From: Candidatus Amesbacteria bacterium | GTDB lineage: Bacteria; Patescibacteriota; Microgenomatia; CAZETR01; Amesbacteraceae | Assembly (NCBI GenBank): GCA_027371535.1 | Contig: DAHXMV010000006.1 | Span: 1-55,322 of the forward strand | Direction of reading: 5' to 3' | DNA length: 55,322 nucleotides | In this document: in pieces, positions 7,751-25,118 of the stretch | Numbering within the stretch: the stretch's first letter is position 1 | Layout: every line of letters starts with the position of its first letter | Notes under the pieces: generated by a model | What the model saw: only the letters and a program-made list of their open reading frames with translations | Database searches by the model: none | What the model was told of the DNA's origin: nothing | Program-made: the position numbers and the translations under genes

Positions 7751-7825
7751 AGATTGGTATAATTGATCAGCAAGTTTTGCGGTTAAGCGGGCCGAAGCCC
7801 TAATACCCGCAATATGCGCCAATTT

Positions 7826-8273: not shown

Positions 8274-8471
8274 TTGTGTCTATATTATCAAATAATTTGT
8301 AATATTCAACAAATCTGAAGCAGGTAAAGTTGGAGGCTTTGGTATCTTAGTTGGCCAAGGCCAAATGACAATGAAGTTGAACAAGTTGAAATGCAATCGT
8401 TATGAGCTCGTCAATGCTATTATTTATTAGCTGGTTTAGTTCGCGCGAAATCCGCTTACCCGCTCAAGAAT

Positions 8472-8821: not shown

Positions 8822-8903
8822 TGGCTACAGTATACACTGCAGATAGCCTTTTTGTTACCGGAAACGGGTGTTTTTTAAAGTGGCAACAAAAATAGACCAG
8901 CTG

Positions 8904-9653: not shown

Positions 9654-9675
9654 AAGGCCTTTAGTATATCAGATT

Positions 9676-10272
9676 TCAAAAAGAATGGGATTTGTAAAGA
9701 TTGATCTGATTTTGCAGATCGGAAAGCATTGCCCGATCGGGGTTTAGTAATTGATTAACAACCATATCGGAAGGAAAGATATCCTTCAGATCGGATTGAT
9801 AGTTTACGCCTGCCCTGGGAATACGATGGGAGATAATTTGTAATCCGGAATTATTCCAGGTAACCACCAGGGTAAGAGGTACAGAGATGCCCGAGCCGGG
9901 TATGATATTTCCCTGGTTTGAATAATATTCCTGACATATGGCCCAAAGATAAATAACCCGGGGCCGGGAAATACCGGAGTTTAAAATTTTATAAGCGCAA
10001 TAAACCCGGCCCAAATTATGCGTTTTTATACCCAGTGAGGCTACCAAAAAAGAATTTATGGTCTGAGAATCCGCCGTATCCAATTTCAGCGATGGCGTGG
10101 GTGACGGGGTAACCGCGGGAGTGGAAGTGACAGCCGGCATGGTCTGCGAAACCAGTTTGGTGATTTGGGTAGAAGCGAGCTGGGATTTGATAAACGGCAG
10201 GCTTTTATAACCGGCATATCCCGCCAGAACCAAAAGCAGCAGGAAGATTAACAACAGTAAGAACTTCCCCAT
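9676..10272 (-). CDS. Hypothetical exported protein
   Basis: N-terminal hydrophobic helix, P/T linker and a Cys pair. Confidence 0.7.
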   Translation of the reverse strand: MGKFLLLLIFLLLLVLAGYAGYKSLPFIKSQLASTQITKLVSQTMPAVTSTPAVTPSPTPSLKLDTADSQTINSFLVASLGIKTHNLGRVYCAYKILNSGISRPRVIYLWAICQEYYSNQGNIIPGSGISVPLTLVVTWNNSGLQIISHRIPRAGVNYQSDLKDIFPSDMVVNQLLNPDRAMLSDLQNQINLYKSHSF

Positions 10273-10344
10273 ATGATGATATATTTATTATTTTACACCC
10301 CGGGATGATTTAAGTAAAAAATCAAATCGGATATAATGGGGATA

Positions 10345-10911
10345 ATGAAGAAGAAACTGATACTTGCCGGAATAATAATTAGTATAATAGCTGCGGGATG
10401 GATATTAAAAGACAGGTATCTGAAAGTGAGAGTCGCATTGCACAGTAATAAGGCTGGTATATCCATTAAATTTCCCTACGGGTGGCAGATTACCTACCCG
10501 GCAAATACAGACGCCAATCTCTTCCGGATACAGGCGGATGCCAGTTCAAAAGGAGAAATTACCGGTAATATTAAGGAAATTTCAGTGACTCTGAACAAAA
10601 ACAGCGGAGCTGGCCAGTTAATTGCCACCCAAGAGGATTTTGACCGCTATTATATGGTTAAAAATAACGATACGGCCACAGATACCGGAATTATCAAAGT
10701 TCAAAACGAAACGGTGGGCGGAGTTAAAGCAGTCAGACTGGCAGAAATGGATGTTTTTAAAACTTCGTCGGAATACGGTTTTTTCTCGGAAACGGTGTGG
10801 GCCAGAAAAAACAACACCAATTATTATATTAATATGATGGGCAACGGGAGTATAAGCAAAACGGATATCGAAAAATTTGACGAAATTCTGAAGAGCTTTA
10901 AATTTGATTGA
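10345..10911 (+). CDS. Hypothetical exported protein, PsbP-like
   Basis: Signal/TM MKKKLILAGII, GISIKFPYGW motif, ends FDEILKSFKFD. TATAAT at 10332-10337 favours a start at 10345. Confidence 0.7.
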   Translation: MKKKLILAGIIISIIAAGWILKDRYLKVRVALHSNKAGISIKFPYGWQITYPANTDANLFRIQADASSKGEITGNIKEISVTLNKNSGAGQLIATQEDFDRYYMVKNNDTATDTGIIKVQNETVGGVKAVRLAEMDVFKTSSEYGFFSETVWARKNNTNYYINMMGNGSISKTDIEKFDEILKSFKFD

Positions 10912-10917
10912 TTTTTG

Positions 10918-10989
10918 CGCCCCCGGGAGGAATCGGACCTCCATCATCTGTTCCGAAGACAGACACTCTATCCATTGAGCTACGAGGGC
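10918..10989 (-). tRNA. tRNA-Arg(TCG)
   Basis: Reverse complement reads gccctcg-tagctcaatggatagagtg-tctgt-cttcgga-acaga-tgat-ggagg-tccgatt-cctcc-cgggggc-g. Confidence 0.92.
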
Positions 10990-11054
10990 AAACAACATAA
11001 TTTTAACCCAAAATAAGGTAAAATGAATGTGATTTGGTAGGTATTACCAAATAT

Positions 11055-11129
11055 GGTGGGTGTAGCTCAGTTGGTTAGAGCGCCTCGCTGTGGACGAGGA
11101 GGCCGGCGGTTCAAGTCCGCTCACTCACC
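11055..11129 (+). tRNA. tRNA-His(GTG) with encoded G-1
   Basis: g-gtgggtg/cactcac-c acceptor (G-1:C73), anticodon arm cctcg-ctgtgga-cgagg, GGTTCAAGTCC T arm. Confidence 0.96.
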
Positions 11130-11201
11130 CAAGTTTTTCCAGCCTCAAGCAAATATATCAAACAACTGCACCCCAAGACGGGATTAGAAGTATATTGATT
11201 G

Positions 11202-11894
11202 TTATTTAACTCTCTTTGTTACAACCATATCTCTGATTACCATTGTGTCATCCTGCTCTACCATAAACAAAATGATATTTGCGATTTTATCAGTATTCAT
11301 CCACTTTTGATTGTCTCTTAAAGTACCAAATTTTTCGAAAAGCCGGGTTTTCATGCCGCCTGGGTAAAAACCACTAACTTTAATATTACTGCCAGCAAAG
11401 TCATCCTTGAGTGTTTCCGTAAAGCCTCTTAATCCCATTTTGGAAGAGACATAAACTGACTGTTTGGCAACTCCCTTTAAACCGGAAGTGGAAGAAACGT
11501 TTATGATGTGTGCTTCAGGAGAGCTTTTCAGCTTAGGCAATAGGGCTTTAGTGACATAAATTGGACCTTTTAGGTTTACATCTATGACCTTTGATATATC
11601 TTCATACTTGTTCTCGTCTAGCAAACCTTCAAGCCATATGCCTGCATTATTAATTAATACATCAACCCCCCGTATTCCAGAGCAGGCTTTTACAACCTTA
11701 TTAAAATCACTGACATCAGCAGTGTATACGTGAAGCGAATTATTATTTATTTCCTTTTCCATCGCGTTTAACTTTTCCGGGTCTTTGCTTATTACATGCA
11801 CAATCGCTGATTTGGTTAAAAATAGTTTTACCAATGACAATCCTAACCCGTCAGTTCCTCCAGTTATGACAACGTTCTTATTTTTGATGTCCAT
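11202..11894 (-). CDS. Short-chain dehydrogenase/reductase (SDR)
   Basis: TGGTDGLG, NNAG and YVSSK motifs. Confidence 0.93.
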   Translation of the reverse strand: MDIKNKNVVITGGTDGLGLSLVKLFLTKSAIVHVISKDPEKLNAMEKEINNNSLHVYTADVSDFNKVVKACSGIRGVDVLINNAGIWLEGLLDENKYEDISKVIDVNLKGPIYVTKALLPKLKSSPEAHIINVSSTSGLKGVAKQSVYVSSKMGLRGFTETLKDDFAGSNIKVSGFYPGGMKTRLFEKFGTLRDNQKWMNTDKIANIILFMVEQDDTMVIRDMVVTKRVK

Positions 11895-11949
11895 ACTTCG
11901 TTTATTATATCAAAACTTTAATGAGTTCTGACTTGTACCCAAGACGGGA

Positions 11950-12477
11950 TCAGGACTCTTTAACATTTTCATTCATAAATTTCGTAGTTATATACGGCAA
12001 TGCGTCAGTATCGTCTGCTGCTAATCTAATCATGTTTAAATCCGGGCGGTAAAATAGCTCTACCCCATTTACAACCTTTTTTTTCTGAACTTCCACCCTT
12101 AACTTATCAAATTCATATTTATCCAAAACCAAATCAATATCGCCAACCTGAGGCTTGTCCGGGTCCGGTCTTCGTATATATAAATATTTATAGGTAGTTT
12201 CGGGGAAATCTCCCCTTTTATCGTCAATTTTAACCGGCCGGTATAAAAGGTAATATTTCTGATTCCAATTAATATTTATATCGGTCATTTCCTCACGAAG
12301 TTTGGTAAGGAAAGCAAATTCGTCATCAAAATGGGTAAAAATTCCCAAATTGCCGGATGCAGGCAAGTATTTGCCAAAAAATCTATAGCACAGTTTGAAA
12401 CAGGCAAAGTGAACATGCGTAATTGCTTTTATCAACTCTTCATGAGTCCCGATCGGACTAAATCTAAATGACGTCAT
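11950..12477 (-). CDS. Hypothetical protein (175 aa)
   Basis: Overlaps the upstream aldo/keto reductase by 4 bp (ATGA coupling). No family recognised. Confidence 0.7.
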   Translation of the reverse strand: MTSFRFSPIGTHEELIKAITHVHFACFKLCYRFFGKYLPASGNLGIFTHFDDEFAFLTKLREEMTDININWNQKYYLLYRPVKIDDKRGDFPETTYKYLYIRRPDPDKPQVGDIDLVLDKYEFDKLRVEVQKKKVVNGVELFYRPDLNMIRLAADDTDALPYITTKFMNENVKES

Positions 12478-13367
12478 TTTGTTAGTTTAGGCTTTCTGGG
12501 CGGGGAACAGTCACTGAGCAATATTTTAATGGGATAATCCCTGTCCAGTCTTTCCATGTCTTCTTTGCTTAGTTCAAAATCAAAAATTCCGATATCTTCC
12601 AGAATATGTTTTGGGTCAAAGGCTTTAACCAGAGCCGCCACCCCATTTTTTTGAACGAGCCATTTTAAGGCTATCTGGGACTGGCTTTGATGATATTTTT
12701 GAGCCAATTCATCCACAACCACGATTCCGGGTTTTGAAAGCTGTCCAAGCTGTAACGGCCGATATGCCGACAATAATATGTGGTTATGTAAACAATAATC
12801 GTAAACGCCGGAAACCAACGGTTCCCGGATTGCCAAATTAAAATGCATCTCGTTACAGACGATTTTTCCGCCGGTATATTGGTCTATGAATATCAGCTCT
12901 TCCAGCCGGTAATTACTGACACCGATATATTTGGTCAATTTATTATCCAGCAGGTACATTAAACCGTCTGCAACTTCGGAAACGGGAACATCGGGATTAA
13001 CCGCACCTATCATGTATAAATCAAAATAGTCAGTTTGTAGTCTTTCAAGGGATCTTTTAGCTTCGTCAATCAAATCCTGTTTACTTTTGGCGAAATTCTG
13101 ATTAATGGCTTCAGACAAAAACAGACTCTTTCTGGCAAAACTTTTCATGGCCTCCCCTACCAGAATGTGACAATAACCCTCGGCATAATTCTGGGCGGTC
13201 CTAAGCCATCTGAACCCGGAGTTTAAAGCTTTCTCCATGGCCTTTATCTGGCCGGCGTCATCATTTCTCGGATCATGTTTCATCCCCCCGCCAACCATAT
13301 AAGTGCCCAGACCCAATTTGGGAATTGTACCACCCGTTCTTAAATCAATTTCCGGTATTTTACCCAT
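12474..13367 (-). CDS. Aldo/keto reductase
   Basis: IPKLGLGT, SLERLQTDYFDLY, IGVSN and QIALKWL motifs. The usual DTAxxY reads RTAQNY and the conserved His reads G. Confidence 0.88.
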   Translation of the reverse strand: MGKIPEIDLRTGGTIPKLGLGTYMVGGGMKHDPRNDDAGQIKAMEKALNSGFRWLRTAQNYAEGYCHILVGEAMKSFARKSLFLSEAINQNFAKSKQDLIDEAKRSLERLQTDYFDLYMIGAVNPDVPVSEVADGLMYLLDNKLTKYIGVSNYRLEELIFIDQYTGGKIVCNEMHFNLAIREPLVSGVYDYCLHNHILLSAYRPLQLGQLSKPGIVVVDELAQKYHQSQSQIALKWLVQKNGVAALVKAFDPKHILEDIGIFDFELSKEDMERLDRDYPIKILLSDCSPPRKPKLTK

Positions 13368-13515
13368 TTTTTTAATTGTAACATCGAAATACCATAGGGT
13401 TCAAAATGGTAATCCGCCTTTAAAAAGAGTTTCAGTGAATCTCCGGTCTTTGACCCAATAATTACGATTTGGGCTTGAAAATCTCCATAGTACATGATAT
13501 AGAAATATTAAAAAT

Positions 13516-13743
13516 ATGGCGGTTAAACGCGTAAAACCTAAAAAAACCCTGGAAGAAAAACTGGAGGAGGTGCAGTTGGATGCCGCACTGATCCAAAATT
13601 CACGGGCCCAGAAATGGGAAGAAGTCCGCAAACCCTATGAGGATTTTGTCTTCAAGGAGAAAAGAAACGGTTTCGCTTTCGGGTTGGTAATAGGGGCTAT
13701 TTTAACTTTCATCATTTTGCTTTCAATTGCCTCGACACTGTAA
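13516..13743 (+). CDS. Small protein with C-terminal TM helix
   Basis: 75-aa ORF with a charged N-terminus and hydrophobic C-terminus. Confidence 0.65.
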   Translation: MAVKRVKPKKTLEEKLEEVQLDAALIQNSRAQKWEEVRKPYEDFVFKEKRNGFAFGLVIGAILTFIILLSIASTL

Positions 13744-13780
13744 TTTGATAAGGCCGAAGTGATAAAATAGGAACTTGAAC

Positions 13781-15307
13781 ATGAATGACATAGCGGCGAA
13801 TTTTCTATCTACCCTGAGCATGGGTAAAGGCGAAAAGGACAGCAATGAAAATGAAAGCAATGACCCGGTCAGAGTGCTGGCCAAGGCTTATGAAGTTGCC
13901 CGTAATGCCCTGGAATACAGGGCCGACCATCTGGTGAGAAGAGCGGCTATTGAAAGAATTATCAAAAGGCAGATTGTTTTTGAACAGGATACCACCAAAG
14001 TTGCCGAAGCCCTCCTGCAGGAGCTGGAATGGGCGAGATATGTCAGCGGGGCAAAAGAAGAGTCATTGTTGATTGCGGATACAGCTTCGATAATAAGCAA
14101 ATACCGGCATGCGCTGAAAAATTTCGGCGATAATAAGTGGCTTTTGGGGCTGATATCAGCCGAGATCGAGGAAAGGTTAAATCCGACCACGGACTACCAA
14201 AAATTTACTACCTTTGCTTTCAACATAATAAAGTCAAAAATCAGGCTGAACGATATCGATAATCTGGACCTGATTTTATATGTGGTGGTGGATAAGGTTT
14301 TCTCGCAATCCGATAACGAACAGGTTTCTTATCATATTCTGAAGCTGATCCGCGGGCAAACAGAAGATTCCGGGACAGTGACTACGGATAGGCTCCTGGC
14401 GGAGACTTTGAAATATTATAATCTGGCTACGAACAGCCCTACAGCCAACAGACTGGCCGTATTTGTGCGTAAACAAATCGGACCGCTGGTCCTTATCCGG
14501 GATATGTACTTTGCCATTCCGGAGGAATTTGAGAAATTGACGACCGACAGGGATTTATTCAACCAATCGGCGGAAAAAGTTCTGAGGGAACAATTGCACC
14601 GGATGCGCAGCCGCTTAAACCGGGCCACCATCAGGAGCCTGATTTATGTGTTTTTGACCAAAATGCTGTTGATTATCGTGGTGGAAGTCCCGGTAGAAAA
14701 GTTTTTGCGGGGATCCGGAAATATGTTAACGCTATTAATAAATGTGATTTTCCCGGTGGCTTTTATGTGGATACTGACAGCCAGGATCAAACTGCCGGTG
14801 AGAAAAGACCAGGAAACTTTAATCCAGGCCGCCGGGGAAACAATTTTCGGGAACCCGGATGAGGTGCCCGAGGACCAGATACTGGCTACCCTGGACCAGA
14901 AAAGCTCGAAGATCATGCTCTTTATTTATTACCTGTTTTACGGCCTGTTGTTTTTATTAATATTTGCCGGAATAGTGATGCTTTTAACCTGGATCGGTTA
15001 CAGCATTGTGTCCCAGATTATCTTTATCTTCTTTTTATCACTGGTAACCTTTTTTGCTTTCAGAATCAAACAAACAGCCATGGTATATTCTTACCGGCCG
15101 AGGGTAAGATCCAGCTATTCGTTTTCAGAAAACCTGATGCTGCCGATTGTGACCCTGGGAGGAATGCTGTCGCAGGGAGTTTCACGGCTGAATTTTTTGG
15201 TGTTCGTTTTTGATTTTGTCCTCGAGTCGCCGTTTAAAATCATTCTTCACTTTCTGGATAAATGGTTTGCCTTTCTATCGATAAAGAAGGACGAGGTAGT
15301 AGGTTGA
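13781..15307 (+). CDS. Conserved hypothetical membrane protein
   Basis: About 508 aa, with a helical N-domain (YEVARNALEYRADHLVRRAAIERIIKR) and several C-terminal TM helices. Confidence 0.8.
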   Translation: MNDIAANFLSTLSMGKGEKDSNENESNDPVRVLAKAYEVARNALEYRADHLVRRAAIERIIKRQIVFEQDTTKVAEALLQELEWARYVSGAKEESLLIADTASIISKYRHALKNFGDNKWLLGLISAEIEERLNPTTDYQKFTTFAFNIIKSKIRLNDIDNLDLILYVVVDKVFSQSDNEQVSYHILKLIRGQTEDSGTVTTDRLLAETLKYYNLATNSPTANRLAVFVRKQIGPLVLIRDMYFAIPEEFEKLTTDRDLFNQSAEKVLREQLHRMRSRLNRATIRSLIYVFLTKMLLIIVVEVPVEKFLRGSGNMLTLLINVIFPVAFMWILTARIKLPVRKDQETLIQAAGETIFGNPDEVPEDQILATLDQKSSKIMLFIYYLFYGLLFLLIFAGIVMLLTWIGYSIVSQIIFIFFLSLVTFFAFRIKQTAMVYSYRPRVRSSYSFSENLMLPIVTLGGMLSQGVSRLNFLVFVFDFVLESPFKIILHFLDKWFAFLSIKKDEVVG

Positions 15308-16007
15308 AATTTTTCCGGGCAAATTCGTGCAATAAACGGCGGACTTCACGGCTATATGCCGGTTTTTTGAAATTAATCCGACCGGTGGTCCATTGAAAAT
15401 AGTTCTTTTTGGTATGGCGGGGCAGCATCCAGTGCTCAAAATAGAATTTACCGACATTAACCAGACGGGGGGACATGGTATGCCAATCAGAAATGGCCCC
15501 GAGGGCCCACCTGAGCCGGGGAATGGACCATTCTTCCAGCCGGTCCAGATCTTTTAAGATTTTAGTTTCGGTATTCCGGGTCGGCAAAAACTGAAACATG
15601 GAATGTTTTCTGATGGAATATTTGACCTTACGAACGAGCTTTTTATCCAAAGAATGATATTTGGTAAGTTTGCCGAAAACCCGCATGGAACCCAAACCTT
15701 CATAAAACTGATGATAAAGCGCCTTGTGGCCGCTGTTTAATACCCGGCCGGATTTCCAGACATCATGCCAGCAGATTGAAAGCAGCAGCAATTCGTAGTT
15801 AATTTTAGACCAGTTTATTTCCCGGCTTTCATCCATAAATTTACCCAGGTTTTTTAATATGCCCAGGACATGCCTGTCATCGTGCATCTGATCACGGCTT
15901 TTGCGCATGATTTTGAGGCCTTCCAGGCAGGAGTGTTTTACCTCGGGGGAAATCCGAATATTGTGGCCGGTTAAAAATGAATTAAAAGTAAATTTCCCCG
16001 GGTTCAT
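15240..16007 (-). CDS. HD-domain phosphohydrolase
   Basis: H(DDRH)...CWHD...HS...DLDRLE metal-binding pattern. Confidence 0.8.
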   Translation of the reverse strand: MNPGKFTFNSFLTGHNIRISPEVKHSCLEGLKIMRKSRDQMHDDRHVLGILKNLGKFMDESREINWSKINYELLLLSICWHDVWKSGRVLNSGHKALYHQFYEGLGSMRVFGKLTKYHSLDKKLVRKVKYSIRKHSMFQFLPTRNTETKILKDLDRLEEWSIPRLRWALGAISDWHTMSPRLVNVGKFYFEHWMLPRHTKKNYFQWTTGRINFKKPAYSREVRRLLHEFARKNFNLLPRPSLSIERQTIYPESEE

Positions 16008-16022
16008 AAAGGAATGATAGGG

Positions 16023-16418
16023 TTATTTTAACTGATCGGAGGAAGAATTGCTGTCGGGCAAAGCAGCCAGATATTGCCTGTCATACGGGGTAATACAGAT
16101 ATTATCACCCATGGCCAGGGTTTTTCCGGAAGATTTTTTTTCATCAATGAGCGGACTGACAGTTTCCAATACCGTAAAGGCGGGCTGGATATCGCTTTTG
16201 ATTTTAAGGGTTTTGACAAGTCCCAGATAGCGGAATTTGGAACCGGGTTTCAAATAAACAAAATCCATAAGTTCCCAGTGGGGTATGACATCAGGGAGCC
16301 GGTGCATAATTGCCACACTGAGAGTATTTATAGTCTGGCAATACTGGCCCGGATACAAATACTTCGGGTAAATTTTAAGTGACAGGCGGTCCCAAATATT
16401 CGGATGATCACTATTCAT
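16023..16418 (-). CDS. Hypothetical protein
   Basis: ORF fills the gap between flanking genes. ATG at 16418 avoids overlap with the divergent gene. Confidence 0.5.
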   Translation of the reverse strand: MNSDHPNIWDRLSLKIYPKYLYPGQYCQTINTLSVAIMHRLPDVIPHWELMDFVYLKPGSKFRYLGLVKTLKIKSDIQPAFTVLETVSPLIDEKKSSGKTLAMGDNICITPYDRQYLAALPDSNSSSDQLK

Positions 16419-16461
16419 TTGAATATTGCAATTATTCTGGATTGAATATAACATGTTAGAC

Positions 16462-17133
16462 ATGGCTGTGAAAAGAATCAGGACCAAAAAAACGGTTTTA
16501 CCAGAACCAATGGAAGTTACGGAAACACCACCGGAAGTTCAAGAAGCTCCCAAAAAGAAAGTCAGCGGGTGGGTGATTGGAGTTATCCTGGCAGTAATAC
16601 TGGTAGGGTTTTTCTGGTACAAAACAAATTCCTGGCCGATTGTGGCGATGGTAGGCATGAGACCGATTACAAGATTTGAAGTAGATCAGGCTTTATTCAA
16701 GCAGGGAGGTAAGACACAGGTTGAAGATATAATTACGCAGACTTTAATTGAAAACGAACTGAAGAAAAATAATATAAACATCAGCAGCGCGGAAGTTGAA
16801 AGTAAAATAAATGATATAAAAGCCCAGCTGGGAAAAACTACCAAGATTGAGGATGTGCTGGCCCAGAGAGGCATGACCATGGATGACTTTAAAAAACAAC
16901 TGGCTTTGCAGATGGGCATAGAACAATTGTTGAAGAATAAAGTGACAGTAACCGACCAGGAAATTGCAGACTATATTACGCAGAATAAACAGTATATGAG
17001 CTCGGCTACCCCAGAAGCCCAGAAAGCCGAAGCGACACAGGCAGTGCAAATGAACAAGCTGCAGACTGAAGTAAATAACTGGATAACCCAGTTAAGGAAT
17101 GCCAGCAAAATCTGGAGAGCTCCGGGGGTTTAA
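16462..17133 (+). CDS. SurA N-terminal domain / PrsA-like foldase (no parvulin core)
   Basis: TM helix followed by IVAMVGMRPITRFEV...ISSAEVE...VTVTDQEIADY...WITQLRNASKI. Confidence 0.8.
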   Translation: MAVKRIRTKKTVLPEPMEVTETPPEVQEAPKKKVSGWVIGVILAVILVGFFWYKTNSWPIVAMVGMRPITRFEVDQALFKQGGKTQVEDIITQTLIENELKKNNINISSAEVESKINDIKAQLGKTTKIEDVLAQRGMTMDDFKKQLALQMGIEQLLKNKVTVTDQEIADYITQNKQYMSSATPEAQKAEATQAVQMNKLQTEVNNWITQLRNASKIWRAPGV

Positions 17134-19298
17134 GACAATTTCAGAGAGTAACGTTCGCGGGAAGAGCGGAGAATTTTGTCAAGATTCTGATTAGATGATT
17201 TGTGCGGAGGCAGAGTGGTAGCCAGAAACGGCGGCGAAACCGCCCCGTCGATGGTCATTTTGACGGCAATCTGGTGTTTTTGCAGGGAAACCAGATTGGC
17301 GGCGGTAAACGCCCCGCCAAATTCGGCTTCCATGACCCGGGCATCTTCGGAGCCCAGGACAAAACAGACGGTGGTGCCGGCGTTGCCGAAAATGGCCTTT
17401 TGGATGGGTTCGGTAATCTGGGCGATATACTGGTTGGCCAGAATCAGGCCGAGCTTAAATTTGCGGGCCTCGGAAAGAATTTTAATAAAGCTTTCGGTGG
17501 CGAAATTCTGAAACTCATCGACGTAGAGGAAAAATTCACGCCGGGCATCTTTTGGCTGGTCCACCCGGTTCATGGCGGCCAGCTGCAGCTTGGTGATAAA
17601 CATGGCACCCAGAAGAGCCGAATTATCCTCCCCCAATTTACCCTGGGACAGGTTGGCAATTAAGATTTTGCCCTGATTTAGAATCTGATCCAGGTCGATG
17701 GATGAAGCCGAATGGGAAATCAGATTATGAATCAGGGGGGAATTGACGAACTGGCCGACTTTATTCAGGATACTGGAAATCTGCTCCGCGCGGGTCTTTT
17801 CGTCCAATTTATCGTATTCGTTTTTCCAGAAGGAAATCAGCTGATCGTTTTTAATCCGGGAATAAATAGTCTTTCTGAATGCGGAATCGGTGAGCATTTT
17901 AATGACATCGGGCAGGGTGGAGCCGGGAATCTGGGTCAGCGTCAATAAAGTATTGCGCAAAATGTATTCCAGACGGGGGCCCCAGGAATGTCCGTAGAGT
18001 TTATGGAAAATGGCCACGATGCCGGAGGTAACCAGCTCCGACTGGTCGGGATTGGCCACTTCCAGAATATTTAAGGAAATGGGGTGCTCCTTGTCCGCCG
18101 GATTGAAATAAACCACATCGTTGATGCGGTGGGAAGGCACATAATTTAACAAGGCTTCGGCGCTGTCGCCATGGGGATCGATGAAGGCTACTCCCCTGCC
18201 CTTTTTAAAATCGTCGACGGCCATATTTTCCAGCAAGGTGGATTTGCCGGTGCCGGACTTACCCAGGATATACATATGTCGTAAGCGGTCTTCGGTTTTA
18301 ATGCCGAAATTGAGCTGCTGGTTGTGAAAGGTGGTATTGGCAAAGAAGTTGATATCACGGTTGGGATCGGGGGCGTTTTCGGCAGGTTTTGTGTAAACCG
18401 GCAGGTTTTCCGGGGCTTCGGAGAAGGAAGCGGAGACGGACCAGGCAACGTTGGGGATTTTGGTGTAGATGCCGGGAAGATGCCAAAGGGATGATAATTC
18501 CATGACATTTAAGACCGTAGGAGGCACCAGGAGGCTTTTGAAGGGTTTACGGCCCATAATACAACCAAGGAGAGTACTTTTATCCCAGGGAAGGATTTGA
18601 GCAGCCTGGAGGCTGTTGCCGTCGGGGCGGTTTAAAACGGAAATAGCTCCCCGCAAGTCGTAAAGCAGGCGCTGACTGGTGGCGGCAAAGTGAATGCTGA
18701 CACCGACTAACGGGTAGGACAATTTGTCTTCGACGATCTTTTTTTGGGGAATGGGCGGGTCTTTGACCAGATGCCCGGCTTCGTCGTAATGCTGGGTGGG
18801 CTGGATATAGGTATAGGCTTTTCTGACAAGGGATCTGGCAGCCGGGGTCAGCACAAACTGGACCAGGATCCGGTCATCAGGACCGGCTTTACTGAGGACG
18901 CCCATCAAGGGCAGCATGGGGTCGACTTCCTTGTAATCGGCATAATCCCTCAACGGATAAAAAGCGGCAAAGGACTGGCGGATGAGCATGGTATACGGCC
19001 TGAAATTCCAGGTGGCCAGATAATCTTTGATTTCGGACATGACTACGTCGGGATAGGTGGCCAGAAGCTGGGACTGGACAAAGGTGGTCAGGTGGTCGGG
19101 AAAGACGATGGCAAAGACGACCTGGCCGTTGACGATACTCACCTCCAGAGAAATATAAACAGGCTCAATGTGGGATAAACGGCCCAAAAAGTCATCGGCT
19201 TTGGTGATTTTGGCCAGGGAGGCGAGAACCTGGGACATCTGTTCGGGGGTGTTGTCCGATTCACGGGGAACCCTCAATGAAAGGACTTTAAGAGCCAT
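17130..19298 (-). CDS. VirD4/TrwB/HerA-like P-loop ATPase (T4SS DNA-binding domain family)
   Basis: RHMYILGKSGTGKS Walker A, FIDPHGD, LYVDEFQNF Walker B, SEARKF...LANQY. Confidence 0.9.
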   Translation of the reverse strand: MALKVLSLRVPRESDNTPEQMSQVLASLAKITKADDFLGRLSHIEPVYISLEVSIVNGQVVFAIVFPDHLTTFVQSQLLATYPDVVMSEIKDYLATWNFRPYTMLIRQSFAAFYPLRDYADYKEVDPMLPLMGVLSKAGPDDRILVQFVLTPAARSLVRKAYTYIQPTQHYDEAGHLVKDPPIPQKKIVEDKLSYPLVGVSIHFAATSQRLLYDLRGAISVLNRPDGNSLQAAQILPWDKSTLLGCIMGRKPFKSLLVPPTVLNVMELSSLWHLPGIYTKIPNVAWSVSASFSEAPENLPVYTKPAENAPDPNRDINFFANTTFHNQQLNFGIKTEDRLRHMYILGKSGTGKSTLLENMAVDDFKKGRGVAFIDPHGDSAEALLNYVPSHRINDVVYFNPADKEHPISLNILEVANPDQSELVTSGIVAIFHKLYGHSWGPRLEYILRNTLLTLTQIPGSTLPDVIKMLTDSAFRKTIYSRIKNDQLISFWKNEYDKLDEKTRAEQISSILNKVGQFVNSPLIHNLISHSASSIDLDQILNQGKILIANLSQGKLGEDNSALLGAMFITKLQLAAMNRVDQPKDARREFFLYVDEFQNFATESFIKILSEARKFKLGLILANQYIAQITEPIQKAIFGNAGTTVCFVLGSEDARVMEAEFGGAFTAANLVSLQKHQIAVKMTIDGAVSPPFLATTLPPHKSSNQNLDKILRSSRERYSLKLS

Positions 19299-19388
19299 AA
19301 TTCTAGTCTAGCATAAAGTATGGGAAATCTGACGGATCCAAATAATATTTACGGCAGGGTGAAGAGAACAGTAATAAGCCTATAACTA

Positions 19389-19419
19389 TTGACATTAGCC
19401 CTATAGTATGATATACATT
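19389..19419 (+). promoter_or_regulatory. Putative sigma70 promoter for the structured-RNA/ORF unit
   Basis: TTGACA at 19389-19394. Candidate -10 boxes are TATACA (19412) or TACATT (19414); the exact -10 is ambiguous. Confidence 0.5.
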
Positions 19420-19424
19420 ATGCA

Positions 19425-19860
19425 GACTTTAAGTTTAACTTCAAAAGCGAAGATATTAACTTAGTAAGTCTTTCTAGTTTTACTAGCACTAAATCTAGCA
19501 CTTTAAAAACAGAGAGAAAAGAGAGTATTCTATTACCTGAAATTTGCGTGGCGTATCGAGTCCCGCCGGCTACGGCTTTTGTCGTTGTGCTAGGCGACAG
19601 GGGCTTTAAATCAATAAGACCGACGGGATTCAATACGTCACGTAAATTTTGGGAGAGAGTTTTTTAGGGATTATTACAATAACCCATCAGGGTTATTGAT
19701 AAATATTGGTAGAAACGGGGACGCGCTTTTTTTATTACCCAGGAGTTCATGCCGGACGGCAATCTTGGATGTCCTAAAACTTATTTAGGGATTGACTGAA
19801 ATCACCATAGTGATTACAGGACCTAGAAAAAGATTAGGAAATAAAAAACGGAGATAAGAA
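19425..19860 (+). ncRNA. Highly structured 5' leader / candidate ncRNA domain
   Basis: 30-bp stem 19540-19569/19620-19649 (3 G-U, 2 C-A), capped by the G-U-rich hairpin 19575-19604. Further hairpins at 19425-19470, 19677-19698, 19739-19768, 19772-19790 and 19800-19815. Confidence 0.6.
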
Positions 19861-19862
19861 AA

Positions 19863-20648
19863 ATGAAGACTAAGAAGTTTGTTTTGTTGATGGCTTTGGT
19901 TATAGCCCTTTCGAGCGCATTTGCCCTCCCAGCGGCTATTAATCATTTGCCAGGTATTGTGCAAACCCCTATCGCCAACGTTATAAACGTTGTCGCAAAC
20001 GCCTGTTCTATGAACTGTACATCTTGGGATGGTACAGCTTCCTGGGGCGCGGGCGATTATCGCATGATGTTGGATGGTAACTCAGTTTGGAGTGGGACGT
20101 TGACAGACAATGAAAAGAAAGAAGGAACGTTCACTTTGAACTGTGGTTGGCACGAATGGTCATGGGAAATGAAGGTAAAGGATAAAGAAGGAAATGAGAA
20201 ATGGGAGAGTAAGGCCGGTGGAAAATTTGAATGCAAGTGCGCGTCAGCTACGCCGACAAACACAATGCCTCCTACCGAGACTTTACCCCCTACCTCAACC
20301 TCTACTACTAAACCTTCCATTACCCCGTCCTTAACAAGCTCACCAACAATCACTTTAACCTTTACTCCAACCTTAACGGTTACTCCATCAATCACCGCTA
20401 CACCTACCAACACAAGCACTGCTACACCAACACTACCTGGACCGACCCCTGTATCTACCACACCTGCGCCCACCACTGTGGTTACTACTGTTGTAGTTCC
20501 TACTACCCCCGTGGTTACCACTCCGGCGCCGACGACTCCTCCACATCCCCGAATCACCCCAAACCCTGGCTCCAGTAATGGTGCAAGTGACCAACCAAAG
20601 AATATATTGGATTGGCTCAGGTTCTTTTGGAACTTGATTTTCGGATAA
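19863..20648 (+). CDS. Secreted protein: signal peptide, small Trp/Cys-rich domain, long Pro/Thr linker, amphipathic C-terminal helix
   Basis: GGAG SD at 19850-19853. MKTKKFVLLMALVIALSSAFA signal, TPT repeats, ends ILDWLRFFWNLIFG. Confidence 0.85.
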   Translation: MKTKKFVLLMALVIALSSAFALPAAINHLPGIVQTPIANVINVVANACSMNCTSWDGTASWGAGDYRMMLDGNSVWSGTLTDNEKKEGTFTLNCGWHEWSWEMKVKDKEGNEKWESKAGGKFECKCASATPTNTMPPTETLPPTSTSTTKPSITPSLTSSPTITLTFTPTLTVTPSITATPTNTSTATPTLPGPTPVSTTPAPTTVVTTVVVPTTPVVTTPAPTTPPHPRITPNPGSSNGASDQPKNILDWLRFFWNLIFG

Positions 20649-20660
20649 AACCTATCTAGA

Positions 20661-20997
20661 CCACGACCGGAGGGCATAACCCTACCTAGCACTTCCCAAA
20701 CGGGAAACTGCCCTCCGGTCTGGATGAATAACTTTCTTTCTCTCCCTACGTGACGCAAGTCATTAGGACGATACCTAGAACTTTTAGGTATTTTGCAGGT
20801 AACATTCGCTGTTATTTTTGCGGATTGCCTGATGTTTTATGGTATTAAGAGGGAGATGTGTGTTTTGTTTTGTGTGTTTTGTTGATTTTGGGATTTTTCT
20901 GGGGAATTAGCTTTTTTTGCAATTATTGATTTTTGATCATTTTTTTAAACCCCCCCAGCCCAATCAGCAACAACCCGCATTACAGCACCATCTCCCT
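20661..20997 (+). ncRNA. Highly structured 3' trailer
   Basis: Perfect 12-bp stem 20665-20676/20709-20720, GCAA-tetraloop hairpin 20745-20767, hairpin 20771-20791, long imperfect hairpin 20850-20997. Confidence 0.55.
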
Positions 20998-21077
20998 AAG
21001 TTTTTTACAGATGAAGTCTGTACTGATGAGGCGGCCCCACTACGCTGAAGCTACGCGGGGTAAACCGAAAAAACTTA
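20997..21077 (+). ncRNA. Type III hammerhead ribozyme candidate
   Basis: Stem III taagtttt(20997-21004)/aaaactta(21070-21077). NUH=UUU at 21003-21005. Stem I tacag(21006-10)/ctgta(21018-22). CUGAUGA core 21023-21029. G10.1-C11.1 closing stem II (21030/21066). GAAA 21067-21070. Confidence 0.75.
21035..21064. repeat. REP-like miniature palindromic element inside hammerhead stem II
   Basis: ccccactacgctgaagctacgcggggtaaa is an imperfect palindrome with two GTAG motifs on the minus strand and resembles 23636-23674. Confidence 0.65.
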
Positions 21078-21168
21078 ACAATAAAGTTAACTTATACAAA
21101 ATATAAATATTTTGTATATCCATGAGTTTTAAAGCAGAACTCATGGCTATAGGTTATAATAAACGACC

Positions 21169-23430
21169 ATGAATAATGTTGAACACGGACAATACCAATA
21201 TTTAAAGCGGCAGGAAAAACTGACCGCGGTTCCGCAGGTCGAGGACAAATACTCTGACGAGGCTAAAAAGGCCTGGATGAGAAAGGCGGCTGCACAACAT
21301 AAACTGGAGATGTTTTCAGATGTAAATGTGGACCCGGACAAAAAGACTGTAAGTGCCGAAGAGATGATGAACGCCACCCTGGAAGGTTTAAAAGAAGCTG
21401 AAATTAAGAGACAACATTCTAATACCGATAAAGGGAAAGCCTATTGGAAGAATGTAGAAAGAGGCCTGAAAATCAAAAAGACATGGCTGGAAAAAAGCAT
21501 GCCCAAGAACCAATTTACTAATGAAGAACTAAGGCAACCTTTAATTGTAGAAACCGAAAAACAAACAGAAACCTTATTACTGCCTAAAAGTATTCCGGAA
21601 CCGATAGCTGAAAATAAACCTGTTTTGACCAGATTCCAGATGTTAGTTAAGGGAATCAGGCAAAAAGGCGACGAAATATTGCAAAAATTAAGAGTAGAAC
21701 CGGATATTGTTGACAGCGATTCTGTATTAGAAAGCTGGAGAGCAAGTGAAATTTCAGAAAAGAAACAAAAGAAAAACATTTTAAAGGAAATTGCTTATGG
21801 TACTGGTATTGTCACTACGATTGCAACTGCGGCATTAGGTATTTATGCGTGGTTAAACAGAAAATCCGCAGTATCTCCAGTTGAGATTGCCAAAGCTTTA
21901 AATACTCCTATACCATTGGAAACAACCATAAATACTCCTGTCCCGGCAAATACGATTACGGTGACCCCTTCTGTGATACCATCTGCCACGGAGACCGTAA
22001 CGCCAAAGCCATCTGTGACTCCCGAGAAGCCCACTAATTCTTATGAAATATCAGTTGACGGTAAAACTATTGATCTGACCAAATCACTAGCTATAGTTTT
22101 TTCCCAGAATCTGTTAAATGCTGCAAGTGTAAAATCTCAGATTCCTATATTTACCCAACCTTTTGTTATCAATACAGAAGCCGATTATTTGAAAGCGCCT
22201 AATACAATGGGGGTGAATGAAAAATCAATAAATACAAACCACTGGAAAGAATATCCGTGGCAGGCTTCCGTGATGAAATCCTTTTACAACAGTGATTTTG
22301 TAATGAGTCTGGAGAGCGGGCATTTAAATCAAACAGTTCCAAAAACAATGAATTCCGATTGGCAGAAAGCCTTTAATGAAACTTTTCCCAAGGCCAGTTT
22401 GGATAAACCGCAAGCATTTGATATGCCGGCCCAGCCTTTGGTTGATCTGGCCAATACACTACCAAACCATATTGAAAGAATATCAGTAAATGGAAAATCG
22501 AGCGATATGACTGTATATGAATTACCAAACCAGCAATTTAAAATACAAGTGGACGGAACTCCGTGGACTATAAAAAGTATGAGAAAAGTAAGTCTGGATG
22601 TGTGGAATCAAACCTGCGGGAATACCGATAAAGGCTGGTATTGTGCGTTGGATCAGGTAAATATTCCGCAACCTGCAGAGACCACAATCACTATTCCCAC
22701 ATGCATGGATTTTAAAAACGGTGAATACGCAAACCGATTAATAGTTGAAATAACTCCGGATAAATCAATAAGTCTCGACAAGTTTGCACCTGAAGTTATA
22801 AATGATCCTATTTTTAATAAAGGAGTGCGTCAGGCAGTGTTAATTAACGGCTACCAATTTACCGGCAATAAAAGTGGCTTTGTAAATTATTTGAAAAGTT
22901 CAAATCTGTTTGATGAATGGGATAAGCTGGTAATAGATAATTTAATTACTAATAATACAAATAATTTTCCTGATGGGAAAATGACCGGTATTCAGTGTGT
23001 AGGTTGGGCCGGATTGAGAACCGGACCAGAAAGCCCGATGTATTTTGGCGGAGATATAAAGGCAGACGGTACTAAAATAAAAGGACCCGGAGAGGCTGTT
23101 CCGGATAGCGTTAAGAAAGCTGCAAATCAAAATTATTTGTACACGGAGACTGAAGGTAACAGAAAATGGATAACGGGAAATGTTGATCTGCACATGGTGA
23201 AAAAGGGAGATGTAATTGTGGAATGGAGCGATGACCCCAATTTTTCAGCCGGTCATATTATCTATGTTGAAAATATTATTTCTGATAGCAAAGGCAATGT
23301 GATGGTAATTTTATCCGAAGCTAATAATAAAAATAATCCCGGTCAGGTGTCTTATTCCGTAATTAGTGGAATTTCGTTAGAAAGTTCCCTGAATAATAAG
23401 AGTTTGGCTTTGGTGACTAATCGTGGATAA
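21169..23430 (+). CDS. Single-pass membrane protein with sortase-like and CHAP-like domains
   Basis: TM near aa 207-228 and a P/T linker. SGH (H385)...TITIPTC (C512)...NRLIV (R523). GIQCVGW (C610)...AGHIIYVE (H696)...LSEAN (E717). Confidence 0.7.
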   Translation: MNNVEHGQYQYLKRQEKLTAVPQVEDKYSDEAKKAWMRKAAAQHKLEMFSDVNVDPDKKTVSAEEMMNATLEGLKEAEIKRQHSNTDKGKAYWKNVERGLKIKKTWLEKSMPKNQFTNEELRQPLIVETEKQTETLLLPKSIPEPIAENKPVLTRFQMLVKGIRQKGDEILQKLRVEPDIVDSDSVLESWRASEISEKKQKKNILKEIAYGTGIVTTIATAALGIYAWLNRKSAVSPVEIAKALNTPIPLETTINTPVPANTITVTPSVIPSATETVTPKPSVTPEKPTNSYEISVDGKTIDLTKSLAIVFSQNLLNAASVKSQIPIFTQPFVINTEADYLKAPNTMGVNEKSINTNHWKEYPWQASVMKSFYNSDFVMSLESGHLNQTVPKTMNSDWQKAFNETFPKASLDKPQAFDMPAQPLVDLANTLPNHIERISVNGKSSDMTVYELPNQQFKIQVDGTPWTIKSMRKVSLDVWNQTCGNTDKGWYCALDQVNIPQPAETTITIPTCMDFKNGEYANRLIVEITPDKSISLDKFAPEVINDPIFNKGVRQAVLINGYQFTGNKSGFVNYLKSSNLFDEWDKLVIDNLITNNTNNFPDGKMTGIQCVGWAGLRTGPESPMYFGGDIKADGTKIKGPGEAVPDSVKKAANQNYLYTETEGNRKWITGNVDLHMVKKGDVIVEWSDDPNFSAGHIIYVENIISDSKGNVMVILSEANNKNNPGQVSYSVISGISLESSLNNKSLALVTNRG

Positions 23431-23464
23431 ATAATTAATTGGGAAGTAAAATTGGAAGTAAATC

Positions 23465-23536
23465 GCCCTTGTAGCTCAATGGACAGAGCAAATCCCTTCT
23501 AAGGATAAGATGGAGGTTCGATTCCCCCCAGGGGCA
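23465..23536 (+). tRNA. tRNA-Arg(TCT)
   Basis: Acceptor gcccttg/caggggc, anticodon arm atcc-cttctaa-ggat, GGTTCGATTCC T arm. Confidence 0.93.
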
Positions 23537-23542
23537 CAGTTA

Positions 23543-23693
23543 TGTAGCTCAATGCGGAGCAATCCCGACTAAGTCGGGAAAGATATCAGAAGATAAATCT
23601 TCCTCTATCCCTCACATAGTTCGTGATGAAGGTTCCCCTCCTTCGTCCCTCTACGCGGGACTACGGCGGGCAAGAATTCCCCCCAGGAGCACA
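23543..23693 (+). pseudogene. Degenerate tRNA-Arg(TCT) copy interrupted by palindromic insertions
   Basis: tgtagctcaatg (23543-54), gatgaaggttc (23625-35) and aattccccccaggagcaca (23675-93) match the adjacent tRNA in order. Inserts at 23563-79 and 23636-74. Confidence 0.8.
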
Positions 23694-23711
23694 AGTTAGG
23701 TGAAGCTAAAA

Positions 23712-24008
23712 CTAGGAAATATTTAAAACTTTTTCTATCCGATCAGTCCGTTTTGTGACCGACATCAGATCATTATCCAGGGAATTGATGATATAGGACA
23801 TATTTTTCTCCAATTTTTGAAGAGATCTTTTTATGGGTGCTAATTCTTTTTGTATGAGTATGGGGACCTCAGCTTGAATGGCATTGTTTACAAGAGGCGG
23901 AACCTGCGTCTGAATGGCATGATTAATCAATGGCGGAACCTGGGTTTGAATAGAATTAGAAATTATATTTGAAATGTCTGATAAGTCAGTTTTTGACAAC
24001 ATTAACAA
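23712..24008 (-). CDS. Small coiled-coil protein with three 12-aa tandem repeats
   Basis: IQTQVPPLINHA/IQTQVPPLVNNA/IQAEVPILIQKE repeats, ends KRTDRIEKVLNI. Confidence 0.7.
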   Translation of the reverse strand: MLMLSKTDLSDISNIISNSIQTQVPPLINHAIQTQVPPLVNNAIQAEVPILIQKELAPIKRSLQKLEKNMSYIINSLDNDLMSVTKRTDRIEKVLNIS

Positions 24009-24057
24009 AACCTAATCCGTGTAAACTTGGCTGTCAATAAGGTAAAATAGGCATGCC

Positions 24058-24129
24058 GGGTTCGTAGCTCAATGGCAGAGCAGCTCCCTCTTAAGGAGAC
24101 GGTTGTGGGTTCGACTCCCACCGGACCCA
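24058..24129 (+). tRNA. tRNA-Lys(CTT)
   Basis: Acceptor gggttcg/cggaccc, anticodon arm ctcc-ctcttaa-ggag, GGTTCGACTCC T arm. Confidence 0.95.
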
Positions 24130-24135
24130 CAGCAT

Positions 24136-24918
24136 ATGCCAGGTATATATTTTGAAACAGATATTGCTAAATCCAGGGAAACTGCGGCTAAACGGCTGGA
24201 AAATGCCGGCGATGTGATTTTGAATAAAGAAGAAGTGGAAGCTAAACTTAAGGATATTCTGGATCAGAATAAAGGCGTAGTTTTCCTGGGTAATCATTAT
24301 CATTATATAAACGGCCCGAAAGACGCGGTGATGATTGCCGGACTGAAAGAGGTCGCCGATCTGAGATTTTATATGCCGGTGACTGACTATTTATTATTGT
24401 TGGCAAGAATCGCCAATTTTGTACTGAATACCCACATTGAAACTTCCGGGATTGTTACACCGGCAATAGCCCGGAGAAAAGGGATTTTGGGTTTGATTTA
24501 CGGTAGGAGGCAAGGCGAGGGGGTCATTAAATATATGCGAAAAACCAGAGAAATATTATCCCCGTTCGGAGATAATAAACCAGGTATTATGGTTGCCTAC
24601 CCTAAATTTAGCAGAGGGGACGGGAAGATGGGACAGCTGGACCCCGAAGAAAAGCAGATGATAGAAGGACTGGCCTCTTCTTTAAAAAATAACAAGCCTT
24701 ATTTCTGGCCTTATGCCTCTATTGCACTGGACAATGATGGAAGAATTATTATCCCCAAGAATATGAAGGAATTCAAAAACTACCGTATTATATATATGTT
24801 CGGAGAACCAATTAATTTTAATGATTTACCGGATATGAAACATAACGGAAGATATGAAGGGACGGCCAAACTGATCCATGAGAAGATTAAACAAAAGCTT
24901 CCGGAAGGCTACAGATAG
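24136..24918 (+). CDS. Divergent PlsC-like acyltransferase-fold protein
   Basis: VVFLGNHYHYING (block I-like), MVAYPKFSR (FPEGTR-like), YMFGEPI. Start moved to the ATG downstream of tRNA-Lys. Confidence 0.55.
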   Translation: MPGIYFETDIAKSRETAAKRLENAGDVILNKEEVEAKLKDILDQNKGVVFLGNHYHYINGPKDAVMIAGLKEVADLRFYMPVTDYLLLLARIANFVLNTHIETSGIVTPAIARRKGILGLIYGRRQGEGVIKYMRKTREILSPFGDNKPGIMVAYPKFSRGDGKMGQLDPEEKQMIEGLASSLKNNKPYFWPYASIALDNDGRIIIPKNMKEFKNYRIIYMFGEPINFNDLPDMKHNGRYEGTAKLIHEKIKQKLPEGYR

Positions 24919-24935
24919 AGTAAAATTAACGGTAT

Positions 24936-25028
24936 TGCGGGGTCGTCTTAGCCGAACGAAGCGAGGCGGAAACGGGAGAGCGTAAGCTCGACCATCATGG
25001 TAGGACCTTAAAATATATCGTCTAATGG
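24936..25028 (+). pseudogene. Degenerate 5'-half copies of tRNA-Gln with palindromic insertion
   Basis: tgcggggtcgtct (24936-48), a 48-bp insert, then atggtaggac (24997-25006). A second fragment tcgtctaatgg lies at 25018-28. Confidence 0.8.
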
Positions 25029-25046
25029 GACGTAAAAATACAGGAC

Positions 25047-25118
25047 TGCGGGGTCGTCTAATGGTAGGACTCCAGACTTTGGATCTGGCTATTCTTGGTT
25101 CGAATCCAAGCCCCGCAG
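25047..25118 (+). tRNA. tRNA-Gln(TTG)
   Basis: Acceptor tgcgggg/ccccgca, anticodon arm ccaga-ctttgga-tctgg, T arm cttgg-ttcgaat-ccaag. Confidence 0.96.

Follow-up and report, generated by a model that had tools for sequence, protein, structure and literature searches.

A candidate end-paired messenger RNA with a hammerhead ribozyme at its 3′ end around a secreted-protein gene in a Candidatus Amesbacteria bacterium

The DNA considered here, called the window in what follows, is a stretch of 55,322 nucleotides from a Candidatus Amesbacteria bacterium (contig DAHXMV010000006.1, which is contig C40 of a 1.02-Mb genome in 43 contigs). In this stretch, 1.87 kb separate a gene for a TraG/VirD4-like ATPase (17130–19298, minus strand) from a gene for a protein of 753 residues, with a single open reading frame (ORF) in between, at 19863–20648. 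We propose that this ORF is carried by an exonuclease-protected messenger RNA, the leader and the trailer of which would be paired, while its 3′ end would be set by a type III hammerhead ribozyme. We give this reading, which comes from the comparison of homologous sequences, a probability of about 0.7. An initial annotation of the window had pictured an undescribed large non-coding RNA, or else an ORF-containing and perhaps mobile RNA element, with paired flanks and a ribozyme-defined 3′ end. Comparison supports the second picture, that of a structured RNA built around an ORF. The terms ‘large non-coding RNA’ and ‘mobile’ fell away: the ORFs look like those of real secreted proteins, and the unit is present as a single copy at one syntenic site.

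A family of homologous units

Homologues were collected using the TraG-like protein as an anchor, which gave 7 genome loci and 36 metagenome loci. The loci with enough upstream sequence comprise ten distinct units, that of the window and L058, L059, L060, L062, L063, L064, L069, L092 and L093, all ten lying on the strand opposite to the anchor. In the window the anchor gene is thus divergently oriented to the unit; its product is 67–77% identical to that of the neighbouring gene in three homologous units. The order of the parts recurs from unit to unit: a leader motif, the purine-rich 5′ strand of a long-range helix (LS), in most cases a long hairpin whose apical loop contains GUGCUAG, the ORF, a trailer of 286 to 520 nt, a long hairpin and the hammerhead. 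The leader motif, TCTAGCACnTTAAAAA, is found in nine of the ten units and is unique in the 1.02-Mb genome. A match to TTGAC[AT]-N16-18-TAnnnT, sought as a regular expression, lies 68–132 nt 5′ of this motif in seven of nine units, and the promoter-like site of the window departs from this pattern at one base. We infer that transcription starts near 19425. Homologous leaders and trailers, then, co-occur around different ORFs, which is what the initial annotation had proposed to look for.

Each unit has one such ORF, which we shall name its cargo, of 220–660 aa. It is complete in nine of the ten units, that of L064 being broken by a masked stretch; its N-terminus is hydrophobic in all nine and its C-terminus in seven of them. 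A hydrophobic stretch with a basic tail at the C-terminus is absent from the cargo of the window, L060 and L063. A detectable shared domain of about 93 aa is limited to three of the nine (L058, L059 and L093), the others being mostly unrelated. The cargo of the window, with its 261 residues, about 440 nt of non-coding sequence on its 5′ side and about 430 nt on its 3′ side, is just as first annotated. It matched no Pfam family, and matches to it within the family are confined to its Thr/Pro-rich part. The best reading of the cargo is a fast-evolving protein, secreted or membrane-anchored and rich in threonine and proline.

The hammerhead ribozyme

The hammerhead that had been announced from position 20997 is indeed recognizable: its core (CTGATGA, 21023–21029, and GAAA, 21067–21070) and its three stems can be parsed at 20997–21077, and a hammerhead with the same invariant core stands at the equivalent position in all ten units. 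In the window, stems III and I, of 8 and 6 bp, are fully paired, while stem II is made of 2 bp, an internal loop and a 26-nt hairpin; stem III is open, stems I and II are closed by loops. The minimum free energy (MFE) fold of the trailer draws the same figure as the manual parse. A21070 pairs with U21004 and G21030 with C21066, and U21005 occupies the cleavage position; we take these to be, in the usual numbering, A15.1–U16.1, G10.1–C11.1 and position 17. The base at the latter place is U in five units and C in five, not G.

Comparison carries the case further. The manual parse leaves no base of stems I and III unpaired in any of the ten units, although their sequences differ, and compensatory changes are seen in all three stems. 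In a model-based alignment of 17 distinct hammerheads 96.2% of the cells are paired and 17 of the 22 pairs changed on both sides, a figure which none of 500 shuffles equalled and which slid controls, with 32–49% paired, did not approach; it must be kept in mind that an alignment fitted to a model leans towards structure. Folding of a MAFFT alignment predicted 0 pairs because the length of stem II varies, and the manual parse together with a covariance model was used in its place.

Database models see these ribozymes dimly. The Rfam model RF00008 gives the hammerhead of the window 20.7 bits (E 0.039, its sole match in the genome) and its orthologues 23–40 bits, all below the gathering cut-off of 48.5 bits; our own covariance model, R1, built from four relatives, gives the window hammerhead 26.7 bits (E 1.5e-6, 369 kb searched). 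At E up to 1, RF00008 finds matches in 9 of 27 genomes of the family (best 40 bits, E ~1e-7) and in 3 of 14 control genomes, and the match of genome G002 falls in a locus homologous to the window. We had considered that the hammerhead might be a chance motif around a dispersed 26-nt element; this idea was dropped after these family-wide matches. Of 151 genomes sampled from the class, 11 (including the unpublished G093) have RF00008 matches at E up to 0.001, and one class genome reaches 49.2 bits. These matches sit between co-directional genes and, of eight loci that were folded, four or more have a stable hairpin ending close 5′ of the match. At 17 more distant TraG-like loci (38–61% identical, 13 of them with at least 2 kb of upstream sequence) R1 found no hammerhead at E up to 1.

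Two side observations belong here. In a locus of the same family (L054, on G025:C4, minus strand) three type III hammerheads follow one another in the same direction about 3.5 kb apart (1166–1221, 4804–4859 and 8265–8317); each separates co-directional genes within an unrelated cluster of membrane-protein genes, which is a ribozyme-punctuated operon. Within the window, a weak hammerhead-like match on the plus strand at 48879–48974 (R1 17 bits, E 0.01; stems of 4, 3 and 5 bp by descriptor) is probably due to chance.

The terminal hairpin and what follows the ribozyme

A hairpin of 40–197 nt closes 0 to 4 nt 5′ of the hammerhead in 10/10 units. What comes 3′ of the ribozyme has no such constancy: the next start codon is found some 2–191 nt away in the other units, a tRNA follows in L062, and in L060 (226–240 region, that is, G022:C39) a G+C-rich hairpin with a T-run, resembling an intrinsic terminator, directly abuts the hammerhead. 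There, the ribozyme would trim off the terminator. Because the downstream context is variable while the upstream hairpin is constant, we assign the role of the ribozyme to the 3′ end of the upstream RNA.

The opposite assignment deserves attention. The hammerhead might serve the downstream gene as an intercistronic insulator, which would give the next mRNA a defined and structured 5′-OH end, the upstream architecture being unrelated. Start codons are indeed close 3′ of the hammerhead in several units (L063 at ~2, L092 at 8, L059 at ~27 and L093 at ~37 nt), other hammerheads of the class likewise separate co-directional genes and are soon followed by a start codon, and it has been proposed that bacterial hammerheads process polycistronic transcripts (PMC3088659; PMC6765202). 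We nevertheless find it quite unlikely that this is how the unit should be read, as the downstream context varies, two hairpins and a TATAAT box being interposed in the window, where the gene begins 91 nt further on, and as the upstream hairpin abuts the ribozyme in every unit. The two roles are, besides, mutually compatible.

The 26-nt hairpin that makes the outer part of stem II in the window is a copy of a dispersed element. The stem II of the L069/L095 unit also has it, with a compensatory change, and in both hammerheads it is followed by TAAA. The element is G+C-rich and 24–26 nt long (consensus CCCCACTnCGC-4 nt-GCTnCGYGGGG), and 12 copies were found in 7 of the 28 genomes of the order: that of the window (21035–21060) and L024–L034 (in G009, G013, G015, G016, G019 and G022). 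Its 4-nt loop shows covariation between the two outer bases. Several copies are embedded, apparently in frame, in coding frames read by eye (DnaX-, UvrD/PcrA- and GlyA-like), and we take the element to resemble the Rickettsia palindromic elements. One copy (L018/L024, G009:C7 ~8950–9160) is within a sequence that, on visual inspection, resembles a T-box leader, with a GGTGGTACC box and a GTC specifier-like loop; this putative T-box leader is upstream of an aminoacyl-tRNA-synthetase-like ORF.

The predicted leader–trailer helix

Transcripts of eight units were folded from 70 nt 5′ of the leader motif to the ribozyme cut. In seven of them LS pairs with a pyrimidine tract of the trailer (TS) in a homologous helix of 13–23 pairs that starts at +14/+16 from the motif. 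That of the window has 18 bp, one bulge and one G–U pair in the whole-transcript MFE fold. In the other units TS lies 50–126 nt past the stop codon. The base of the helix, GAGA/UCUC, is common to the units; the remainder differs and stays complementary, so that a helix of changing sequence is retained at a homologous place. Taken together, the helices have 109 Watson–Crick and 7 G–U pairs, and no A–C pair. The longest Watson–Crick helix of LS is 9.0 nt on average with its cognate trailer, against 7.15 ± 1.16 with the trailers of others (permutation p 0.0002), and perfect complements of 10–11 nt, of differing sequence, are found in L058, L059, L062, L064 and L069. In chimeric transcripts, fewer LS bases were paired than in the cognate ones in 16 of 18 cases (mean 8.6 versus 17.0). 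Finally, the helix of the window, at −20.2 kcal/mol, stands apart from those made with shuffled trailers (−13.8 ± 2.1), its energy being reached by 1 of 300 shuffles and by none of 244 natural chunks of the window.

This is not the pairing on which the initial annotation had placed most weight. It had noted the helix 19512–30/20726–44 as an alternative to two short helices bracketing the leader stem, and it is the alternative that stands, above chance and homologous in 7/8 units. The four segments that would make up the bracketing helices (19533–39 with 20796–802, 19651–58 with 20739–46) are present and complementary, yet complementarity of this kind is at chance level, 17.2 ± 5.1 7-mers and 4.4 ± 2.7 8-mers being expected. 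The whole-transcript MFE fold assigns their bases to local hairpins, and no conserved equivalents were found in the homologues, examined by eye only. The multi-way junction that these helices were thought to create is therefore unsupported, as they are at chance level and absent from the fold.

A sober reading would be that we have here ordinary long untranslated regions (UTRs) with local hairpins, and a real hammerhead, and that the complementarity of LS and TS is a functionless by-product of their composition. Non-cognate LS/trailer pairs also bind, and form strong duplexes, because LS is a tract of purines and TS one of pyrimidines; the cognate advantage becomes weak once G–U pairs are allowed (p 0.06); at least seven LS bases are still paired in 12 of the 18 chimeras, two of which pair as well as the cognate transcripts; and the helix is absent from the MFE fold of L060. 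The matrices of LS/trailer energies are noisy (p 0.004–0.007), RNAduplex being too permissive on long strands and its windowed version noisy still. What makes a mere by-product unlikely is that LS and TS vary in concert where they are variable (L058, L059, L062, L064, L069), that in 7/8 units the first base of the helix is the same homologous one, and that none of 244 natural chunks of the window equals the window's own trailer in binding to its LS.

The points just listed in favour of a by-product also count against the paired, ribozyme-ended messenger that we prefer, and several others must be added to them. MFE folds of RNAs of 1.5–3 kb are generally unreliable. The units are few and related, not independent. 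L063 is without the leader motif and was missed by R1. No other hammerhead of the set is as weak as that of the window (20.7 bits, where the cut-off is 48.5); as its cleavage position is U and the 2-bp base of its stem II gives way to an internal loop and an insert of 26 nt, it might cleave slowly or not at all. Finally, the stretch is absent from two RNA runs of the same study, and transcript, ends and cleavage are all inferred.

Complementarity might also have its meaning in the DNA. LS and TS would then be inverted repeats, either bordering an invertible segment that would make a surface protein phase-variable or forming the terminal repeats of a mobile cassette: they are 13–23 bp long, they surround a variable surface-protein gene, 109 of their 116 pairs are Watson–Crick, and the cargo ORFs vary between units. 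This is improbable on several counts. Complementarity is kept here while the sequence of the repeats is not, whereas the sites of recombinases and transposases are normally conserved in sequence; the helices have seven G–U and no A–C pairs, and strand-specific G–U pairs are kept in the leader hairpin inside the segment. The ORF has one and the same orientation in all ten units as well as in near-identical duplicates from other assemblies, no recombinase family was found in the ten neighbouring proteins scanned, and the unit is single-copy. No inversion joint appeared in one DNA run, possibly the source of the sequence, which is stored as contigs and is blind to rare variants. The view that the unit itself is a repeat or a mobile element was also set aside: its leader and its trailer are each single-copy in the genome, and a DNA search in 27 genomes of the family gave short pieces only.

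Extensive structure, a hammerhead and ends joined by a helix also bring to mind a large non-coding RNA, or a circular RNA akin to viroids or retrozymes, in which the ORF would be incidental. We consider this very improbable: with one hammerhead per unit there is no second cut to free a 5′-OH end, no gene for the RtcB ligase was found in the genome (90% complete), the ORF is complete and begins with a hydrophobic N-terminus in 9/10 units, and the unit is chromosomal and single-copy, at a fixed syntenic site.

Folding of the flanks and features of the locus

Both flanks of the ORF fold far better than shuffled sequences. The MFE of the leader (19425–19862) is −137.5 kcal/mol, where shuffles average −94.3 ± 5.7 (z −7.6), and that of the trailer (20649–21168) is −179.8, against −117.8 ± 5.6 (z −11.1); the minus strand gives weaker scores (z −5.1 and −6.1, respectively). 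The impression that the flanks are tiled with hairpins, and that G–U pairs favour the plus strand, was thus well founded. The same can be said of the leader stem at 19540–19649, present in the fold and kept with compensatory changes in five units: in their consensus fold, 22 of 38 predicted pairs changed on both sides, and several are kept as G–U.

Rfam 15 recognized, at gathering score, only seven tRNAs in the window and nothing in the unit, in keeping with the earlier failure to match it to ribonuclease (RNase) P RNA, tmRNA, SRP RNA, 6S RNA or introns. With E up to 10, the region 19250–21250 gave four sub-threshold matches, RUF4, MIR395, NPPA-AS1_3 and VR-RNA, judged to be noise; the best, RUF4, has 27.8 bits against a threshold of 55.

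The heptamer CTAGCAC makes a pattern of its own. All four of its sites in the 55-kb window are in the unit (19483–19489, 19495–19501, 19587–19593 on the minus strand, and 20686–20692). The 5′ motif and the post-stop hairpin loop are both complements of the apical loop of the leader hairpin, GUGCUAGG. CTAGCAC and GTGCTAG are each retained once or more in the homologous units, at times 3′ of the hammerhead. Because the sequence is invariant, pairing of these motifs is indistinguishable from a protein-binding site.

Table 1. Features of the unit and of its immediate neighbours (positions in the window)
Feature	Positions	Strand	Basis or remark
TraG/VirD4-like ATPase gene, 722 aa	17130–19298	−	Pfam TrwB_AAD_bind E 3.3e-7, DUF87 E 2.5e-7
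Sigma-70-like promoter: TTGACA, 17 nt, TATACA	19389–19417	+	Read from the sequence
Two CTAGCAC copies and conserved leader motif TCTAGCACnTTAAAAA	19483–19511	+	Comparison of units
LS, 5′ strand of the closing helix, purine-rich	19512–19530	+	Pairs with 20726–20744 in the whole-transcript MFE fold
Leader long hairpin, 34 + 13 pairs, GUGCUAG (19587–19593) in apical loop	19536–19653	+	Folding, consensus fold
Remaining leader: further local hairpins; Shine–Dalgarno-like GGAGA, 19850–19854	19654–19862	+	Folding, sequence
Cargo ORF, 261 aa	19863–20648	+	Signal-peptide-like N-terminus, Cys-containing domain, Thr/Pro-rich tail
Post-stop hairpin, G+C-rich, CTAGCAC (20686–20692) in loop, no U-tract after it	20661–20723	+	Folding
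TS, 3′ strand of the closing helix, pyrimidine tract	20726–20744	+	Whole-transcript MFE fold
Two local hairpin domains of the trailer	20745–20767, 20770–20846	+	Folding
Long hairpin with G–U pairs abutting the hammerhead	20850–20997	+	146-nt domain, 51 pairs, −52.1 kcal/mol, 0-nt gap to stem III
Type III hammerhead	20997–21077	+	Core and three stems parsed; RF00008 20.7 bits; R1 26.7 bits
26-nt mini-hairpin, outer part of hammerhead stem II	21035–21060	+	Copy of dispersed element
Downstream gene, 753 aa, no Pfam family	21169–23430	+	Begins 91 nt past the hammerhead

The short space between the hammerhead and the downstream gene (Table 1) is not devoid of signals. It contains a near-perfect palindrome of 25 nt (21097–21121; 12-bp arms and one central base), then a 9-bp hairpin (21123–21150) and a TATAAT box that ends 6 nt 5′ of the ATG at 21169. 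Palindrome and hairpin may be an operator, or a 5′ stabilizer of a downstream message of the leaderless type. The region is also rich in tRNA genes, with seven in the 18 kb from 6774 to 25118, three of which (at 23465, 24058 and 25047) come just past the 753-aa gene.

Proposed fate of the transcript

If the messenger is paired and cut as we propose, its life would run as follows. Transcription from near 19425 would read through the trailer without meeting a terminator; on the plus strand, no terminator-like site was found in 19000–21500. Once made, TS would pair with LS, and the leader hairpin, the ORF and the post-stop hairpin would be enclosed in a loop of about 1.2 kb. As both strands of the helix are outside the ORF, translation need not open it. 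The hammerhead is predicted to cut after U21005 and would leave a 3′ end 8–9 nt past the 146-nt hairpin, with a 2′,3′-cyclic phosphate. Paired ends, terminal hairpin and blocked 3′ end would together guard the message from exonucleases, and we propose that they stabilize it; the same features would uncouple the fate of the mRNA from the sequence that happens to lie downstream.

The helix might alternatively be a processing stalk for RNase III, as around ribosomal RNAs (rRNAs). A gene for this enzyme is present in the genome (G000:C38, 114.5 bits), and RNase III could cut the LS/TS stalk. One may go further and imagine a dedicated, modular RNA ‘expression cassette’, in which the 5′ and 3′ modules would pair as a stalk across swappable surface-protein ORFs, cuts by RNase III and by the hammerhead would yield a pseudo-circular mRNA with paired ends, terminated by a hairpin and a cyclic phosphate, and the CUAGCAC/GUGCUAG motifs would be read by an RNA-binding protein or engage in loop–loop contacts. 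This more elaborate construction is possible; we hold it as tentative, and rather doubt it.

Comparison with known systems

Bacterial rRNA operons have leader–trailer processing stalks that are cut by RNase III. Here too, a covarying helix of the flanks encloses a product that is a kilobase long; here, however, what is enclosed is a protein-coding ORF, the helix has 13–23 bp, and RNase III is known from its gene alone. Another parallel is the icaR mRNA of Staphylococcus aureus, in which a pyrimidine tract of the 3′UTR pairs with a purine tract of the 5′UTR and masks the ribosome-binding site. The unit likewise pairs a pyrimidine-rich tract of its 3′UTR with a purine-rich tract of its 5′UTR. 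As LS is about 330 nt 5′ of the start codon, with the Shine–Dalgarno sequence outside the conserved helix, closure of the message is likelier here than translational masking, unlike in icaR. Synthetic biology has its own version of the 3′ module: the RiboJ insulators combine a hammerhead with a downstream hairpin in the service of the downstream gene. In both designs a hammerhead with an adjacent hairpin would give an RNA end that is defined independently of the neighbouring sequence; in the unit the hairpin is 5′ of the cut, where it would protect the 3′ end of the upstream RNA.

Among natural ribozymes, a close parallel is found in the type III hammerheads that flank genes in bacterial and prophage transcription units, for which cutting of long transcripts to gene-length mRNAs has been proposed (Perreault et al., 2011; PMC3088659). 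They share with ours the core, the three-stem fold and the intergenic site between co-directional genes. The present ones differ in having a fixed hairpin 0–4 nt on their 5′ side and a conserved, structured trailer of 300–500 nt that pairs with the leader, and in being located in chromosomes of the candidate phyla radiation (CPR), beside a TraG-like gene, with no recognizable prophage. Retrozymes and viroid-like circular RNAs (PMC4918200) likewise combine a type III hammerhead with structured RNA and joined ends. Those require two cuts and a ligase, whereas the unit has one ribozyme, no repeats and a secreted-protein ORF, and is single-copy, in a genome where RtcB was not found. In RNA viruses, ribozymes beside start codons are reported to aid translation (PMC13725137).

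A review of 2019 states that function ‘remains elusive’ for most newly found genome-encoded ribozymes and that the bacterial ones need more work (PMC6765202). We found no literature that links hammerheads with the CPR, Patescibacteria or Microgenomates; the supplementary hit lists of PMC3088659, which were outside the scope of this search, might hold metagenomic relatives. While a gene-flanking hammerhead and a leader–trailer stalk are each known, what appears to be new, at the level of sequence, is a hammerhead fixed to a terminal hairpin and combined with a covarying closing helix of kilobase range around a variable ORF. Fixed structural partners turn the vague role of ‘processing’ into specific predictions: a 3′ end at 21005, a cyclic phosphate, a stabilizing helix and, possibly, an RNase III stalk around an mRNA. 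If the more elaborate reading, that of a modular cassette, is true, this would be the first natural bacterial hammerhead whose job, that of making a stable 3′ end of an mRNA, is defined by its fixed structural partners. The unit would also exemplify a conserved mRNA architecture in CPR bacteria, the RNA biology of which is almost unstudied, and with reference to engineering, its design could be used as a natural template for stable bacterial mRNAs.

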